Counted from the first letter of the stretch, positions 7,186-52,551 are shown. The stretch is DNA of 64,000 bases from an uncultured Parcubacteria group bacterium (GCA_947084965.1 CAMTUG010000001.1:409301-473300), one strand, 5' to 3'. Translations and numbers: made by a program. Notes: generated by a model from the letters alone, not told the origin.

Positions 7186-7875
7186 ATGGAACACATTTTG
7201 CTTCCATCCAACTTTCGGTTCGAAGAGGGGGCGACCGACCGTGAGGCCACGCTGGTCATTGAGCCGTTGTATTACGGCTACGGACGCACTATCGGAAACG
7301 CGCTCCGCCGCGTGATGTTATCGTCCTTGAACGGCGCCGCTGTGACGGCTGTTAAAATCAAGGGCGTGCCGCATGAATTCACCGCCATCCCTGGCGTGAT
7401 GGAAGATGCTGTGGAAGTGATCTTGAACCTGAAAGGTCTTCGCTTGAAGATGCACACCGAAGAACCAGTGAAGTTGACCTTAAAGAAGAAAGGGAAGGGC
7501 GATGTGACTGGTGCCGATATCGAAGCGAACGCCGAAGTCGAAATCATCAACAAAGACATGAAAATCTGCACCCTTTCCGACACCGACTCGGAAGTGGAAA
7601 TGGAAATTGTCGTTGGTCGCGGTCGTGGCTATGTGCCGACCGAAGAACGTGACCCTTCTGGTGAAATCGGTTTGATCGCTGTCGACGCCATGTACTCGCC
7701 GGTCCGCAACGTTGGGATCAAGGTGGAAATGACCCGTGTCGGCGAAATCACTAACTACGACAAGTTGGTCATGCCGATCGAAACCGATGGAACGATCACT
7801 CCAGCAGAGGCGGTCAAACAATCGCTGGCCATCCTCTTGGAACACTTTAATCTGATCGATCAGAATCTTGGCTAA
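7186..7875 (+). CDS. rpoA: DNA-directed RNA polymerase alpha subunit, NTD only (229 aa)
   Basis: ...LVIEPLYYGYGRTIGNALRRVMLSSLNGAAVTAVKIKGVPHEF is the alpha N-terminal dimerisation domain. The ORF ends before any alpha-CTD. Confidence 0.85.
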   Translation: MEHILLPSNFRFEEGATDREATLVIEPLYYGYGRTIGNALRRVMLSSLNGAAVTAVKIKGVPHEFTAIPGVMEDAVEVILNLKGLRLKMHTEEPVKLTLKKKGKGDVTGADIEANAEVEIINKDMKICTLSDTDSEVEMEIVVGRGRGYVPTEERDPSGEIGLIAVDAMYSPVRNVGIKVEMTRVGEITNYDKLVMPIETDGTITPAEAVKQSLAILLEHFNLIDQNLG

Positions 7876-12251: not shown

Positions 12252-12280
12252 GAACCCACCAGGAGTGTACTGGTGGGTTC
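12252..12280 (-). terminator. Intrinsic terminator hairpin shared by gene A (minus) and the GT2 gene (plus)
   Basis: GAACCCACCAG-gagtgta-CTGGTGGGTTC is an 11-bp perfect stem. It is flanked by TAAAATATTTTAGAATA on the left and a U-rich run on the minus transcript. It is paralogous to the hairpin at 49543-49569. Confidence 0.5.
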
Positions 12281-12307
12281 ATCGTGTGAGGGTCGTCGGA
12301 GTGCCGA

Positions 12308-13009
12308 CTACCTCGGGGGCGGCGGGGGTGGGGGGACCGCCACGACCTTGAGCGAGGCGGTGACGACCGGGTCCTTCGGCGTGAGCGTCAGGAGGCCGGT
12401 CATCGGGTCGCCGCGCTTGGTCTTCGGCTCGTAGAGGTCGACGCCGAGCAGGGTGAAGCCGACCTCGGTTCCGACCAGCGCCGTGGGACGGACGGAGCAG
12501 ACGAGGTCCACCCGGACCTCGCTGCCGGTCGGCGCCTTCTCGGGCGTCGGCCAGCGCAGTCCCATGCCGCCGGCGGTGTTGGGGAGGTAGCCGATCGACT
12601 TGTCGTCGCGGCCGGGGTACACCACCACGTGGCACAGCTCGAGGGTCTGCTGGGCCAGGGACTCGACCGGGGGCGCACCGGGTGGGAGCTCGGCGTTGAA
12701 GGGATCGACGATCCACTTCGCCCCGGAGCCGTCGCGGACCCACACCGCCATCTTGACATGGGGCACCGTGAAGACCTCGAACTGGTCCGCGGTGATGATC
12801 CACGTCCCGACGACGACGTTCTCGGCTCCGGGCCGGGCCTCCGCCGGCTTGTTCTCCGGCTCCTCCAGCTTGTAGGTGATGGGGACGTTGTCTTCGGCCC
12901 GGTCGTGCCAGTTGTCGCGCGCCATGTGCTTGGCGTGCCACTTGTGGAACCAGGGGCCAGCTTCTGCCGTCGGGGTGACGGCGACCATCAGGACGAGAGA
13001 CAGAATCAT
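12308..13009 (-). CDS. High-GC secreted protein of unknown function with a C-terminal poly-proline tail
   Basis: 233 aa with signal peptide MILSLVLMVAVTPTAEA and no recognisable catalytic motif. It ends ...VVAVPPPPPPPR. Third codon positions are strongly G/C. A GGAGG RBS sits 7 nt upstream of the ATG. Confidence 0.55.
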   Translation of the reverse strand: MILSLVLMVAVTPTAEAGPWFHKWHAKHMARDNWHDRAEDNVPITYKLEEPENKPAEARPGAENVVVGTWIITADQFEVFTVPHVKMAVWVRDGSGAKWIVDPFNAELPPGAPPVESLAQQTLELCHVVVYPGRDDKSIGYLPNTAGGMGLRWPTPEKAPTGSEVRVDLVCSVRPTALVGTEVGFTLLGVDLYEPKTKRGDPMTGLLTLTPKDPVVTASLKVVAVPPPPPPPR

Positions 13010-13128
13010 CGGTTCCTCCGATCTGGGTGAAGGCAGGCCTAAGGGCCCTGCAAGGGACGATCACAGCGCCGCTGTCGGCGTGGAATCTATGCCCAAAAGG
13101 CGCACATTCCATGTCGACAGGACCGTAA

Positions 13129-13157
13129 AAAGTAGCAGAAATTGGCCAAATTGTCAA
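13129..13157 (-). promoter_or_regulatory. Sigma70-like promoter of island A gene (TTGACA-17-TACTTT on the minus strand)
   Basis: The minus strand reads TTGACAatttggccaatttctgcTACTTTttac, followed by a leader of about 120 nt. It is paralogous to the island B plus-strand promoter (shared TCTGCTAyTTTTAC). Confidence 0.4.
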
Positions 13158-41947: not shown

Positions 41948-42592
41948 ATGAGCTACAGCACCTTGTTGAGCGGAACGCACCGGCTCCTCGATGCCCTGCA
42001 GGCGCACGACCCCGCGACGCGAGAGCACAGCGAGCGAACGGGTGTCCTCGCCGCGGCCCTGGCAGCCGAGCTCAGACTCTCCCTGCGCGACCAGGCGATC
42101 CTGCGCCTCGGCGGAGCCTTGCACGATGTCGGCAAGCGCTCTGTTCCACGGGAGATCCTGACTGGCGACATGCGCTTCGTTCGCACCGATCCCCTGTTCA
42201 TCGAGCACATCATCCCCCACCCGACCGCCGGGGCGTACCTGTGCAGCCTCGAACGGATCGATGATGAAGTGATTCAAGTGATCGTCGAGCACCATGAACG
42301 ACTGGACGGTCTCGGCTACCCCTTCCGGATGAAGGCAGGTCAGATCAACTGGCGGTCGATGTTCGTCTCGATCGCCGACATGTTCGACGCCATGACCGAC
42401 ACAACCCGCATCTACCGACGGCCGAAGACCGGCGATGAAGCGATCACTGTCCTGCGGGATGCCGTCGGCAACGGCGAGATCCCCGAGCATCCCGTGCGCG
42501 CCCTTCTCGCCATTCACGAACGCGGCGAAATCGCTATCCTCCACGAACGCGCCGAGCCGCTCGAAGAGATCATTCGGTACCTCTCCACCTAA
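41948..42592 (+). CDS. HD-GYP domain protein (putative c-di-GMP phosphodiesterase), high-GC island C
   Basis: ...HSERTGVLAAALAAEL...LGGALHDVGK...HHERLDGLGYP are the HD and GYP motifs. 214 aa. GC3-rich at about 64% GC versus ~50% in neighbours. GGAGG RBS. Confidence 0.7.
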   Translation: MSYSTLLSGTHRLLDALQAHDPATREHSERTGVLAAALAAELRLSLRDQAILRLGGALHDVGKRSVPREILTGDMRFVRTDPLFIEHIIPHPTAGAYLCSLERIDDEVIQVIVEHHERLDGLGYPFRMKAGQINWRSMFVSIADMFDAMTDTTRIYRRPKTGDEAITVLRDAVGNGEIPEHPVRALLAIHERGEIAILHERAEPLEEIIRYLST

Positions 42593-49468: not shown

Positions 49469-49497
49469 AGTATAGCCGAATGGCTGTAGTAGGTCAA
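49469..49497 (-). promoter_or_regulatory. Putative ATP synthase operon promoter (TTGACC-17-TATACT, minus strand)
   Basis: The minus strand reads TTGACCtactacagccattcggcTATACT, about 10 nt before the ATG at 49458. Confidence 0.45.
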
Positions 49498-49542
49498 GGC
49501 AATTTGTCATTTTTGAAAGTCATTTATCCCCATAAATCGCGA

Positions 49543-49569
49543 AACCCACCTGAAGTGCTCAGGTGGGCT
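49543..49569 (-). terminator. Terminator hairpin of island B minus-strand gene, paralogous to 12252-12280
   Basis: AACCCACCTGA-agtgc-TCAGGTGGGCT. It has compensatory base changes relative to the island A hairpin (AG/CT versus TGA/TCA). The flanking sequence shares CGCGAA...TCGTG.G.G...GGAGTGCC..CTAC with island A. Confidence 0.5.
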
Positions 49570-49594
49570 CGACGTGGGTGAAGCAGGGAGTGCC

Positions 49595-50479
49595 CTACTT
49601 CGTCTGGGTGGTGGGGATCGGTTGCATCTCTGGGCCGGAGACGCCGCCGAACTTGGCGAAGCCGCAGCAGCCGCAGAACAGGACGAGGAGGAACCCGACG
49701 ATGATGATCAGCGGCAAGTTGCCCGCGATCGCGCCGCTGATGGTCGGCTGGGTCGGGGTGCCGGTGGCGCTCGTCGCCTTCCCTGCTTCCTCGCGACCCT
49801 TCTTGGCGGCGTCCTTCCGCTTCTTGCGCTCCTCCGCGCGTTCGTCCCGCGCGGCCTGCTGATCGGCCGTCGGGTTGGCCCAACGGTCCCGGGCCCGAGC
49901 GACGGCGGCGTCCTGGCGAGCACGCGCCGCGGCAGCTTCCGCCGCACGCGCGACCTCGGCTTCGTGGGCCGCGGCGGCCGCCTTGGCTTCGGCGGCCTTG
50001 CGATCGTCCTCGGCCTTCTTCGCGGCGGCGCCAGGGTCGACGGGCTTCACGGTCTCGGCCGGCGTCTCGGGCGCGCCAGCCTTCTTCGCGGCAAGGGCAG
50101 CGGCTGCTGCGGCTCCGGCTGCGCCAGCGGCGACCTCCTCGTCGAGGTCCGGGATGCCGTCCCCGTCTTCTTCGACGACCGCCTCCTCGGGCTCCTCCTC
50201 TTCCTCGCTCGGCTTCTCGGCCTTGACGCCGGTCAGCTTCTCGAGGATCGGGTGGACGACCTCGGCCATGGCGCCGATCACGCTGCCCAGCGTGCCGGCC
50301 TCCTTGGCGTCGAGGAGCTCGGTGAGGAGCTTCTGCGAGGGCTCGTCGAGCACGTCGGCCATTTCGTCGGCCTTGACGGCGTCCGCGGTCCAGGCGGCGC
50401 TGAGGTCCGACCACTCCTGGTCGGTGAGCTCCTCGCCATCCAGACACTTCTTCAACAGGGCCTTGATCTTCGGGTCCAT
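49595..50479 (-). CDS. High-GC tail-anchored membrane protein of unknown function (294 aa)
   Basis: ATG at 50479 (MDPKIKALLKKCLDGEELTDQEW...) with a GGAG RBS. It has an acidic linker (EEEEEPEE), an Ala-rich helix (AEAKAAAAAHEAEVARAAEAAAARARQDAAVARARD), a single C-terminal TM (LPLIIIVGFLLVLFCGCCGF) and a short tail. The track start at 50635 is upstream of the promoter. Confidence 0.55.
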   Translation of the reverse strand: MDPKIKALLKKCLDGEELTDQEWSDLSAAWTADAVKADEMADVLDEPSQKLLTELLDAKEAGTLGSVIGAMAEVVHPILEKLTGVKAEKPSEEEEEPEEAVVEEDGDGIPDLDEEVAAGAAGAAAAAALAAKKAGAPETPAETVKPVDPGAAAKKAEDDRKAAEAKAAAAAHEAEVARAAEAAAARARQDAAVARARDRWANPTADQQAARDERAEERKKRKDAAKKGREEAGKATSATGTPTQPTISGAIAGNLPLIIIVGFLLVLFCGCCGFAKFGGVSGPEMQPIPTTQTK

Positions 50480-50564
50480 TCGGTACTCCGTGGGTGGGGG
50501 TAGATGTCCTGACTGCGGGATCCTTGACGCCTGAAGCGTCGGAACGGGAGAAATCCAGCCGCCA

Positions 50565-50593
50565 AATATAGCATAAAAAACCGATTTTGTCAA
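50565..50593 (-). promoter_or_regulatory. Sigma70-like promoter for island B minus gene (TTGACA-17-TATATT)
   Basis: The minus strand reads TTGACAaaatcggttttttatgcTATATT; the leader of about 85 nt contains the hairpin GACGCttcagGCGTC. Confidence 0.45.
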
Positions 50594-50657
50594 TCCAGCC
50601 CAACAATAAGGGCAAAAAGCGAAAAAGAGGCACAAATAAAGCCAAAATCTTATCTAG

Positions 50658-50693
50658 GCAGACTTGACAAAATCAAAAAAGTCTGCTATTTTA
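50658..50693 (+). promoter_or_regulatory. Sigma70-like promoter for island B plus gene (TTGACA-16-TATTTT), with -35 inside an 8-bp inverted repeat GCAGACTT-N13-AAGTCTGC
   Basis: gGCAGACTTGACAAAATCAAAAAAGTCTGCTATTTTAcaagg; leader of about 120 nt with a GGAG RBS. Confidence 0.5.
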
Positions 50694-50812
50694 CAAGGCT
50701 GTGCAGGACCCTAAAAGAGAGGGCTGGCAGTGGTTTTCCCCGACAGCGGGGCTGATCGAGAGAGAAAGGACACAACACCCAAACGGCGGCCAACCCGCCA
50801 ACGGAGCACACC

Positions 50813-52408
50813 ATGGCGACCCTCGCCGAACAGCTCGCCGCGCAAGCGGCCAACGCCAGCAAGAAGAACGACAAGGGCAACAAGAAGGGCGGTCTCGCGG
50901 CGCAGGCCGCGGCCGGCAACAAGCCCGACGCCAAGGCGCAGCAGGAGGCCCGGGCGGCGGCGTTCGCCGACGCGCAGAACGACCTGGCCGCCGACGCGGT
51001 GATGAAGATCGGGGAGCTCGCCCAGGGCAACCGCCGCGCCCAGGCGGACCTGATCTCCCGCATCGTCCGCAACGGAGAGAAGCTCGCCATCTTCGAGGTC
51101 AGCCCCCGGCAGGAGGAGGGACGGCACGGCGAGGGCCTCAAGTGGGTCGGCGACACCACGATCGACGGCGTCGGGGAGACGGTCGGCTTCACCAGCCACA
51201 TCATCCTCTTCGACCTGGTCGCCGGGAAGAAGGTGTGGTGCTGCCTCGTGCAGGACAAGAAGCGCAAGGACAGCTACAGCGCCTTCCCCCTCGGCCTCTG
51301 CGAGGTGTCCCTCATCAACAACTGGAACGGGAACCGTTCGAAGGAGGACCCGACCATCACCGTCATCACCGGCTCGATCCGCGACGCCCACCGCAGCGTC
51401 AAGCTGACGGTCCGCGAGATCGTCGAGCTGCGTGGGCGGGGCGGGGGTCAGCACCTCGCCTGGCTCAAGGGCTTCCGCCTGGTGAAGCACGAGCGGTGCC
51501 AGCCCTTCGCGCTCAACGTCAAGTCCGTGTTCAAGATCGAGCTGGGCGAGCGCGGCGCCACCCTCCGGTTCGTCTCCACGGCCGAGGCCTTCCAGGGCTT
51601 CGATCACAAGGCGATCGCGATCGGCGGGGCCTCGAGCAAGCCGGTCGATCCGCTCGCGGCGGTCGGCAAGGTGACGATCGAGGAGGTCAACCCGGACATC
51701 GTCCACGGGCTGATCAACAAGCTGAAGGGAGAGAAGAAGACGGACGAGCACCCCACCGTGAAGGCGATGAAGGCGGCCGGGCGCAAGGTGTCGGACGACA
51801 TGGCCGGGCGCGAGGGCCCCATCAACTCGGTCCTGGAGAAGGAGGTCAAGCCGGCGCTCCTCGAGGCGCTGGACGTGGAGATCGAGAAGCGCGAGAAGCT
51901 CCTCGGCGACCTCCCCACCCTGCGCGTGTTCCTGGGGCTCACCACCTCGGACGACATGCGCAGCACCCACCGCAACATCAGCAACCGGCGCGACGCGCCG
52001 AAGGAGGGCAAGGACTCGCCCGCCGAGTTCATCGCCGAGAAGACCAAGATCCCGTTCACCTGGTCCCTCTTCGGCCGCTACTTCCGGGCCGGACTCCTCG
52101 CCAAGATCGCCCAGGCGGAGGAGAGCCACGATCTGGCCGTCAAGATCGTGGTGCTCGAGAAGGAGGTCGAGGTCAACGCCGAGGACATGCTCGGGTGGCC
52201 CGACTGGACCAAGGAAGGGATCGCCGCCCGACTCGAGGCGATCGAGAAGGGCGACGTGCGCGGGGCCGTCTGGGTGGTGAACCAGGCGCTCCGGCAGCAC
52301 AAGGTGGAGATCGACCTCGGCAAGGAGGGCCACCTCGACATCGTGAAGGCTGCGGTGAAGACCGTCGCCGACGCGGTGATCGCCAAGATCACGCCCGCCG
52401 CCAGCTAG
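50813..52408 (+). CDS. High-GC 531-aa soluble protein of unknown function
   Basis: ATG at 50813. The N-terminal ~60 aa are A/Q/K-rich low complexity (MATLAEQLAAQAANASKKNDKGNKKGGLAAQAAAGNKPDAKAQQEARAAAF...). No P-loop, HTH or catalytic motif is recognised by eye. Strong GC3 bias. Confidence 0.6.
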   Translation: MATLAEQLAAQAANASKKNDKGNKKGGLAAQAAAGNKPDAKAQQEARAAAFADAQNDLAADAVMKIGELAQGNRRAQADLISRIVRNGEKLAIFEVSPRQEEGRHGEGLKWVGDTTIDGVGETVGFTSHIILFDLVAGKKVWCCLVQDKKRKDSYSAFPLGLCEVSLINNWNGNRSKEDPTITVITGSIRDAHRSVKLTVREIVELRGRGGGQHLAWLKGFRLVKHERCQPFALNVKSVFKIELGERGATLRFVSTAEAFQGFDHKAIAIGGASSKPVDPLAAVGKVTIEEVNPDIVHGLINKLKGEKKTDEHPTVKAMKAAGRKVSDDMAGREGPINSVLEKEVKPALLEALDVEIEKREKLLGDLPTLRVFLGLTTSDDMRSTHRNISNRRDAPKEGKDSPAEFIAEKTKIPFTWSLFGRYFRAGLLAKIAQAEESHDLAVKIVVLEKEVEVNAEDMLGWPDWTKEGIAARLEAIEKGDVRGAVWVVNQALRQHKVEIDLGKEGHLDIVKAAVKTVADAVIAKITPAAS

Positions 52409-52488
52409 AGGAAGCTGGACTTCAAGAGAAGGGCTAGAGGTAGCAGATGAATCAGTCTACCTCGCCCAACTCATCCTCACTCACGAGC

Positions 52489-52517
52489 GACACCCACGGA
52501 AAACTTCCGTGGGTGTC
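52489..52517 (+). terminator. Terminator hairpin of island B plus gene
   Basis: GACACCCACGGAA-aac-TTCCGTGGGTGTC is a 13-bp stem in the ACCCAC family. A second hairpin, TAGACGGGGCgcagtgGCCCCGTCTA (52526-52551), abuts the tatD stop. Confidence 0.5.
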
Positions 52518-52551
52518 ATCGCGTTTAGACGGGGCGCAGTGGCCCCGTCTA

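Follow-up and report, generated by a model that had tools for sequence, protein, structure and literature searches.

Genomic islands acquired by horizontal transfer are described in the Lawrence-Ochman amelioration framework as regions of atypical GC content, and an abrupt island of deviating GC and codon usage is usually taken as recent horizontal transfer. Extreme codon bias is also encountered in very highly expressed bacterial genes, where it is produced by translational selection. The two divergent genes considered here, A and B, share features with both. They lie in a stretch of 64,000 nt (hereafter the window, to whose positions all coordinates refer unless another locus is named) from an uncultured Parcubacteria group bacterium (GCA_947084965.1 CAMTUG010000001.1:409301-473300). 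The two genes form a module of the chromosome that evolves fast, is restricted to its lineage and occupies a conserved slot with variable content. It appears to be a compositionally atypical orphan module whose anomaly is maintained rather than derived from a donor. This suggests that the usual reading of an abrupt compositional island may be wrong in this case.

The ATP synthase a-subunit encoded in the window shares 60-64% identity with its counterparts in Candidatus Uhrbacteria and further Patescibacteria genomes, and sequence comparison places the host as a Patescibacterium near Candidatus Uhrbacteria. In the Uhrbacteria-related group, the gene order metG-cvpA-tatD-(slot)-atpI-atpB-E-F-H-A is conserved. 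The A/B pair sits in this slot, between tatD and the atpI-atp operon, and its neighbours metG, cvpA, tatD and atp are housekeeping genes. A and B are divergent, while B and tatD are convergent. An earlier reading of the sequence (the original prediction) had singled out the pair as a high-GC cassette of unknown function, and the coordinates, the two proteins and the motifs quoted for them were found as it described.

Like a foreign genomic island, the A/B block stands in sharp GC and codon-usage contrast to its host, and the content of its slot is variable among relatives. Between 49.5 and 50.5 kb the GC content reaches 0.68-0.74, and between 50.75 and 52.25 kb it is 0.66-0.69, against 0.51-0.55 in the flanks. 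Unlike in a foreign island, the deviation is almost purely synonymous. The GC contents of the first, second and third codon positions (GC1/GC2/GC3) are 0.73/0.50/0.89 in A and 0.66/0.41/0.97 in B, whereas GC3 is 0.56-0.69 in the flanking genes and 0.45-0.69 in the ordinary genes of the window, those for ribosomal proteins included. A high-GC block (0.66-0.74) with strong third-position bias, as first proposed, is therefore present. With an effective number of codons of 31.9 (A) and 29.4 (B), the pair lies well below the native genes (46-52). Beyond the reading frames, GC content is 0.54-0.64 in the untranslated regions (UTRs) and 0.36 in the A/B promoter core, with 0.50 in pooled intergenic DNA, and the last 80 codons of tatD have a GC3 of 0.45-0.50 where they abut B at 0.93-1.0. 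The GC excess is a saturation of synonymous sites confined to the two coding sequences. The amino-acid composition of B looks native, with fractions of 0.23 for Phe, Tyr, Met, Ile, Asn and Lys (FYMINK) and 0.30 for Gly, Ala, Arg and Pro (GARP) and a K/(K+R) ratio of 0.61, against 0.25, 0.27 and 0.52 in native genes.

When 1.84 billion representative proteins were searched in full with HMMER, a single relative of B came up: P0003 (553 aa, 35% identity, E = 8.6e-66). This protein is encoded on locus L082 (run SRR28842990) in the matching slot, where metG-cvpA-tatD is followed by a B-like gene (+), an A-like gene (-) and atpI-atpB. Homology, together with slot and orientation, argues for placing P0003 and B in one tatD/atp-slot family. 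The divergent L082 gene encodes a protein that shares with A the N-terminal domain, acidic linker, charged helix and membrane segment. A lack of co-conservation in related genomes had been named beforehand as a finding that would refute the candidate system; both the pair and its synteny are kept in L082. Protein identity between the window and L082 is 64-85% for the flanks, 31% for A and 34-36% for B; since the values for A and B are far lower than those of the flanking proteins, the pair evolves fast.

The compositional anomaly has survived this divergence. In L082, GC3 is 0.81 for the A-like and 0.91 for the B-like gene, with 0.55-0.62 in the flanks. At conserved residues of the flanking genes, fourfold-degenerate sites differ between the window and L082 at a frequency of 0.62-0.69, where 0.73-0.75 would be expected for independent sequences; the flanking fourfold sites of the two genomes are thus near saturation. 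Within B, the corresponding figures are 0.51 and 0.53. Near-saturated divergence combined with persisting GC3 leaves either independent imports of diverged versions or active maintenance, since a single ancestral import should have ameliorated.

The first of these would mean that the pair, or the whole slot, came recently from an unsampled high-GC relative with tatD/atp synteny, entering both lineages independently by recombination near the conserved flanks, and the high GC3 would then be a donor signature. Such a xenologous import is rather unlikely, and it has to be weighed closely. The GC3 distribution of the window is bimodal and not graded, the slot differs in content even among close relatives, and one HD-domain gene elsewhere in the window (K/(K+R) 0.12) does look imported. 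High-GC Patescibacteria with similar GC1 and GC2 exist (L043 with 63% GC and L011 with 60%), and over all codons A/B usage correlates with that of high-GC Patescibacteria at r = 0.87-0.91. However, the import requires two independent events that delivered 35%-diverged versions into the matching slot and orientation; a single ancestral import, as the alternative, would need to have withstood amelioration while synonymous sites changed almost to saturation. Searches of the 1.84 billion representative proteins and of the JGI metagenome, IMG/VR, phage and plasmid collections turned up no donor. At 0.97, the GC3 of B is higher than in the high-GC relatives sampled (0.83-0.88), and the choice among G/C-ending codons is different: L043, L011 and L081 prefer CCG, ACG, GCG and TCG, while A and B prefer C-ending over G-ending codons (CCC 0.46-0.54, AGC 0.45-0.50, ACC 0.67).

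The form of the anomaly also speaks against an import. The composition boundaries coincide with the coding sequences, leaving the UTRs at about 0.6 and the promoter core at 0.36, and the promoter block is common to low-GC relatives. An orphan gene in the same slot of locus L014, with GC1/GC2/GC3 of 0.45/0.40/0.96, would be left unexplained. Unlike a foreign island, A and B lack mobility genes, att repeats, a tRNA and donor homologues, their promoters are typical of the lineage, the pair is present in the L082 slot, and the deviation is limited to coding sequences and kept in an orthologue after near-saturating synonymous divergence. Neither an integrase nor a transposase was found at the locus, the 64-kb window contains no tRNA genes, and a repeat scan of the window detected no repeats flanking the pair above a chance-like level. 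The suggestion that the cassette is an accessory element from outside is therefore not upheld, given that no integrase, no tRNA and no direct repeats were found at the locus, that phages and plasmids yielded no homologue, and that the GC excess affects third positions only and persists in the orthologue.

An alternative that needs no donor is GC-biased gene conversion, in which frequent recombination in the slot would push weakly constrained sites to G/C. The turnover of slot content among relatives would be compatible with this, as would the GC content of the UTRs (0.54-0.64, against 0.50 in pooled intergenic DNA) and the slightly raised GC1 and GC2 of A and B. However, no gradient extends into the flanks: the tatD end, at a GC3 of 0.45-0.50, directly abuts B at about 1.0, although conversion tracts should start in the conserved flanks. 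The UTRs are far from saturation, whereas fourfold sites reach about 0.97, and the preference for C-ending over G-ending codons looks like an effect at the level of codons and not of bases. Gene conversion is thus a very improbable cause. Equally abrupt changes in composition can result from faulty assembly, if DNA of a high-GC organism had been joined to a Patescibacteria contig. This possibility, which had been raised at the outset and has only the abruptness of the change in its favour, is effectively excluded: a separate assembly of run ERR3478686 yielded an identical 6.7-kb contig across both junctions, the second sample (L082) has the matching architecture with diverged sequence, and the changes in composition fall precisely on start and stop codons, with promoters typical of the lineage between them.

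Very highly expressed genes offer another comparison. A and B resemble them in the low effective number of codons, promoters, Shine-Dalgarno sites, 3' hairpins and C-ending NNY codons. They differ in using GAG, not GAA, no TTG, and in addition CGG, CTG and CCC. GAA, TTG and GGT are favoured in the native genes for ATP synthase and ribosomal proteins, where CGG, CTG and CCC are avoided, and A and B do the opposite; the overall correlation between the two usages (r = 0.57) is driven by a preference for C over T. The codon pattern is one of GC maximisation rather than of adaptation to tRNA supply. The same choice is found in A, B, a third gene of the window at 12.3 kb and the L082 pair: AAG accounts for about 100%, GAG for 77-95%, CCC for 0.46-0.59, AGC for about 0.5 and ACC for about 0.67, and TTG is nearly unused. 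Signals consistent with strong expression are promoters matching the consensus at 10-11 of 12 positions, a GGAG Shine-Dalgarno sequence, an effective number of codons of about 29-33, and hairpins with z-scores of -3.7 to -7.7.

Remote relatives of B are probably present in two further slots, at loci L002 and L025. The proteins encoded there (504-648 aa) are clearly related to each other (E = 5e-73), and in pairwise BLASTP B matches the L002 and L025 proteins with E-values of 6e-5 and 2e-5, respectively. A hidden Markov model (HMM) built from these two proteins alone returned B as the single non-self match among 3,763 open reading frames (ORFs), with E = 0.004, and the reverse test from the B side against L002/L025 in the same ORFs, again with no other non-self match, gave E = 0.07. 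An earlier HMM seeded with all four proteins is circular for this homology. In each locus the probable B homologue has the highest GC3 (L002, 0.34 against a median of 0.23; L025, 0.50 against 0.38). The divergent partners in L002 and L025 are acidic soluble proteins. The presence in L025 of two paralogues each of the probable B homologue and its partner indicates that the module was duplicated there.

The best reading, offered tentatively but as a serious candidate, is that A and B are a vertically kept, lineage-restricted, fast-evolving stand-alone pair whose GC3 is held high in place. With moderate confidence, GC3 can be said to be maintained by a force that acts on codons and is connected with expression or with the stability of the mRNA, and not to be the fading signature of an import. 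The likeliest cause would be selection associated with expression that is very high or specific to certain conditions, or with mRNA stability. Several points weigh against this reading. Firstly, the full A+B pair was found in just one other genome, that of L082, and the homology of B to the L002 and L025 proteins is marginal. Secondly, homology of A to the partners encoded in L002 and L025 was rejected, as hhalign gave a probability below 1% for both full-length and N-terminal domains. Thirdly, simple translational selection was rejected and fails as an explanation, because the codons preferred by A and B run counter to the high-expression bias seen in the native atp and ribosomal-protein genes. 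Fourthly, the GC1 and GC2 of B would by themselves also fit an unsampled high-GC donor, since those of L043 atpA are similar (GC1/GC2/GC3 of 0.66/0.42/0.88). Finally, any function assigned to A and B is read from sequence features alone.

Features of the A/B module, of related slots and of other GC3-rich genes. Positions refer to the 64,000-nt window or to the locus named; promoters are given as -35 hexamer, spacer length and -10 hexamer.
Feature	Locus	Position	Strand	Description
Gene A	Window	49595..50479	-	294 aa; GC3 0.89
Gene B	Window	50813..52408	+	531 aa; GC3 0.97
Promoter of A	Window	50565..50593	-	TTGACA-17-TATATT, TG before -10, 11/12 consensus; TTGACAAAATC at 50583-50593
Promoter of B	Window	50664..50692	+	TTGACA-17-TATTTT, TG before -10, 10/12 consensus; TTGACAAAATC at 50664-50674
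5' UTR of A (inferred)	Window	50480..50558	-	From promoter position; GC 0.61; GGAG 8-9 nt before ATG
5' UTR of B (inferred)	Window	50699..50812	+	About 114 nt; GC 0.61; GGAG before ATG
3' hairpin of A	Window	49545..49567	-	CCCACCTGA-loop-TCAGGTGGG, then UUUCGCGAUUUAU; -31.1 kcal/mol, z = -3.7
3' hairpin of B	Window	52491..52515	+	CACCCACGGAA-loop-TTCCGTGGGTG, then UCAUCGCGUUU
Second hairpin	Window	52521..52544		AGACGGGGC-loop-GCCCCGUCU; between convergent B and tatD
atpI-atp operon promoter	Window	49469..49497	-	TTGACC-17-TATACT; downstream boundary of slot
Shadow ORF over B	Window	50701-52437	+	578 aa
Shadow ORF over B	Window	50711-52333	-	540 aa
Shadow ORF over A	Window	49524-50645	-	373 aa
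Third GC3-saturated unit	Window	12255..13157	-	Coding sequence 12308-13009; promoter 13157-13129, TTGACA-17-TACTTT; hairpin 12255-12277, CCCACCAG..CTGGTGGG
HD_5-domain gene	Window	41948-42592	+	Pfam E = 3e-21; between UvrD-like helicase gene and atpC
A-like gene	L082	6022-7221	-	399 aa; divergent, upstream of P0003 gene; phmmer E = 4.5e-11 to A
Slot with duplicated module	L025	1724-6925		Two paralogues of the probable B homologue (504 aa, +; 648 aa, -) and two acidic partner paralogues
Orphan gene	L014	7595-8005	-	136 aa, membrane-anchored; tatD/atpI slot; 41% GC genome
Divergent pair, first gene	L007	7577-8668	-	363 aa; tatD/atpI slot
Divergent pair, second gene	L007	8934-9572	+	212 aa; tatD/atpI slot

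Each gene of the pair has its own promoter, Shine-Dalgarno site and 3' hairpin (see table), in agreement with the original description of a self-contained divergent two-gene module with its own regulatory signals. The two near-consensus promoters with a common motif were likewise recovered, their -35 hexamers lying 70 bp apart, and a promoter scan found 4 sites in the 4-kb region where shuffled sequences gave 0.5. The motif TTGACAAAATC occurs exactly twice in the 64-kb window, at the A and B promoters, where the copies form an inverted pair; the arms of the inverted repeat (50583-50600 and 50657-50674) are 56 nt apart. A promoter block of about 30 nt that includes both copies is conserved in L082, and there the inverted copies (7310-7320 and 7344-7354) are separated by 24 nt. 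Beyond forming part of two -35 regions, the inverted copies could be a shared operator for a dimeric regulator. The motif is located at the -35 region of A, B, both L082 genes, the L002 partner gene and the GC-rich gene of locus L007; the L002 and L007 copies lie upstream of minus-strand slot genes. Near variants are found in L025 and at the 12.3-kb gene. The L082 atp promoter has hexamers identical to those of the window, in the matching relative position.

The 5' UTRs are less distinctive. Neither has a significant fold (z = +0.75 for A and 0.09 for B), and no alignable conservation of the 5' UTRs was found. At the 3' ends, the strong hairpins that had been described as terminators are present, with stems of 12-13 bp; the B hairpin folded together with the one at 52521..52544 reaches -46 kcal/mol (z = -7.7). 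The latter could serve either B or tatD. The designation as terminators holds less well, since the A and B hairpins have no canonical U-tract, and because their U-tracts are weak the terminator scan made no call at them. Hairpins of the type CCCAC..GTGGG occur three times in the window, against 0.37 expected, each just 3' of a GC3-saturated gene, and all three are followed by a tail containing UCGCG. The GC3-saturated units have one common design: a consensus-like promoter, UTRs with a GC content of about 0.6, a GC3-saturated coding sequence and a stable 3' stem-loop. No Rfam family matched the window or the A/B region.

The third positions of A and B also leave a trace in other reading frames. 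Because GC3 is near 1 and third positions lack A/T, three long alternative-frame ORFs with a GC1 of 0.81-0.95 lie over the pair; they were rejected as genes and regarded as shadow ORFs. Such ORFs could mislead gene callers.

Both proteins are orphans, in keeping with the original prediction that they belong to no recognisable family. Searches of Pfam, NCBIfam, PHROGs, PADLOC and PDB sequences gave no significant match for A or B, and none for their relatives or the other slot orphans. No enzymatic, P-loop, helix-turn-helix or nuclease domain was found in A or B. In word-indexed searches of 5.8 billion proteins, a profile search included, the queries matched only themselves, and A, B and the 233-aa protein of the 12.3-kb gene are all singleton clusters. 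No relatives of B were detected in the IMG/VR, phage and plasmid collections by tblastn, or in JGI metagenomes by one protein-based scan and one hand-made degenerate DNA motif. A and B each define a family without any annotation. Literature searches found no description of GC3-saturated orphans as a phenomenon, nor one of the two sequencing runs.

A defence or conflict module would consist, in this case, of a novel membrane anchor and a large effector in a variable hotspot, evolving in an arms race. Like the cassettes of defence islands and hotspots (as catalogued in PADLOC), A and B are a self-contained module of orphan proteins with its own regulatory signals, in a variable slot; they diverge much faster than their flanks, and the slot holds different orphans in some close relatives and is empty in others. 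In L025 the probable B homologue has been duplicated, as, separately, has the L002/L025-type partner. Unlike such cassettes, they have no catalogued match: PADLOC, Pfam, NCBIfam and PHROGs returned nothing for the two proteins, for their relatives or for the remaining orphans of the slot, no nuclease, NTPase, TIR, SIR2 or protease domain that might serve as effector or sensor had a significant Pfam or NCBIfam match, and the alignment of B contains no conserved set of catalytic-looking motifs. The flanks are metG, cvpA, tatD and atp, with no neighbouring defence or mobility genes at the locus, and the saturation of GC3 would be left unexplained. A defence role is therefore improbable, and the defence, signalling or conflict system first proposed found no support in an empty PADLOC search, the lack of an effector domain and the housekeeping flanks.

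Other described two-gene modules fit no better. A type II toxin-antitoxin module would consist of two small genes transcribed together as an operon, with a known toxin or antitoxin fold, unlike this divergent pair of 294 and 531 aa with separate promoters and no family match. The N-terminus of A had been likened to that of anti-sigma factors, a likeness that no search reproduced: Pfam and NCBIfam gave no match to an anti-sigma N-terminal domain in A or to the sigma-70 regions r2 and r4 in B. The pair is not recognisable as a defence, toxin-antitoxin or anti-sigma module and belongs to no catalogued family of these kinds.

Protein A comprises an acidic helical N-terminal domain (net charge -10), an EEEEEPEE linker (net charge -14), a helix rich in Ala, Glu, Lys and Arg, a C-terminal transmembrane segment and a 19-residue tail. 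Its single strong hydrophobic segment spans residues 255-275 and is directly preceded by a cluster of Lys and Arg, from which, by the positive-inside rule, the bulk of the protein is predicted to be cytoplasmic. With low confidence, A may be a tail-anchored membrane protein that exposes its acidic N-terminal domain and its long charged helix to the cytoplasm. The closest described architecture is that of TolA-like and ATP-synthase-b-like anchored coiled coils, which likewise combine one membrane anchor with a long helix rich in Ala, Glu, Lys and Arg. In those proteins, however, the anchor is N-terminal, whereas in A it is C-terminal, and no match at the family threshold was obtained. A TolA model gave a weak compositional match to A (E = 0.45) and to its L082 orthologue (E = 6.6e-4), both far below the cut-off, and the acidic N-terminal domain of A matches no known family.

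Protein B (pI 8.8) contains no hydrophobic segment and is predicted to be soluble. An N-terminus rich in Ala, Gln and Lys is followed by a beta-rich part and a helical C-terminal half. The pairing of a basic N-terminal tail of B with the acidic linker of A was considered and rejected, as the Ala/Gln/Lys-rich N-terminal 62 residues have a net charge of just +1. AlphaFold2 models of B alone and of B aligned with P0003 reached a predicted local distance difference test score (pLDDT) of 37 and are unusable. B might be the soluble partner of A, and both might be abundant structural or scaffold proteins, although this can be held only with low confidence. If so, A and B would cooperate in this role on the cytoplasmic side of the membrane, which is the weakest step of the proposed scheme.

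The slot itself was surveyed in 47 fetched loci in which tatD precedes the atp operon. The spacing between tatD and atpI or atpB is below 800 bp in 30 of the 47 and at least 1.5 kb in 15; the slot is empty in L003, L043 and L004-L006. Where extra DNA is present, it carries ordinary genes in distant lineages and orphan genes in the closest relatives. The idea that the slot is a general insertion hotspot of Patescibacteria was rejected, as the distant lineages hold ordinary genes (RmuC-like, ABC-transporter and two-component). For many of the fetched records with Patescibacteria-like atp loci, the taxonomic label seems at odds with the nearest relatives: L081 (70% GC) is labelled Chloroflexota, and several other loci are labelled Gammaproteobacteria, Bdellovibrionales or Saccharibacteria.

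Synonymous saturation is not limited to the A/B pair. A scan of 1.29 Mb of Patescibacteria atp loci for ORFs with a GC3 at least 0.28 above the locus median returned B, the 12.3-kb gene, the L082 B-like gene, and the 363-aa and 136-aa orphans of L007 and L014; shadow ORFs and a few short ORFs near a GC3 of 0.71 were set aside. For A and the L082 A-like gene, which are equally rich in GC3 (0.89 and 0.81), the scan showed just shadow ORFs, because the start-codon rule extends ORFs into upstream low-GC sequence. The protein of the third unit in the window has 233 aa, a signal peptide and a poly-Pro C-terminus (PPPPPPPR), with no family match; its gene has a GC3 of 0.94, a 5' UTR with a GC content of 0.62 and a 3' hairpin of the CCCAC..GTGGG-UUCGCG type, as in A and B. 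The sequence GGCACTCC directly follows its stop codon and likewise that of A.

The anomaly recurs in unrelated orphan genes in the same slot of other Patescibacteria, at L007 and L014. The 363-aa orphan of L007 has 66% GC, a GC3 of 0.82 and a promoter with TTGACAAAATC in a genome of 45-47% GC, and the 212-aa orphan beside it has normal GC. The L007 slot also holds a purA-like gene and a second copy of tatD. The L014 orphan is preceded by a perfect TTGACA-17-TG-TATAAT promoter with a 5' UTR of about 125 nt, and it is followed by a terminator with hairpin and U-tract. Because, in our judgement, no genome natively has the composition of this gene, a gene-specific process must exist in the group. 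A different case is the HD_5-domain gene of the window, which is Arg-rich and Lys-poor with a GC3 of 0.80. Unlike A and B, it resembles a usual acquisition from an organism of high GC content, and at its 5' end it overlaps the region annotated as the start of the helicase ORF.

It is tempting to speculate that Uhrbacteria-related Patescibacteria contain a small class of self-contained, strongly promoted orphans that are actively held at synonymous G/C saturation, against both the composition and the preferred codons of the genome, although the existence of such a class is doubtful at present. Its membership, equally doubtful, would extend to the A/B pair, the gene at 12.3-13.0 kb and the slot genes of L082, L007 and L014. 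If true, this recoding of particular genes would outlast a full turnover of synonymous sites and would point to an unrecognised selective force, for example for extremely stable transcripts in ultra-small cells or for translation under a different tRNA regime or cellular context. Should GC3 be maintained in place in A and B, they would provide a natural within-genome control for the long-standing question of whether selection, rather than mutation or gene conversion, can set the synonymous GC content of bacteria. Saturated GC3 would then also flag the orphan proteins that matter most to these uncultured, host-dependent cells.

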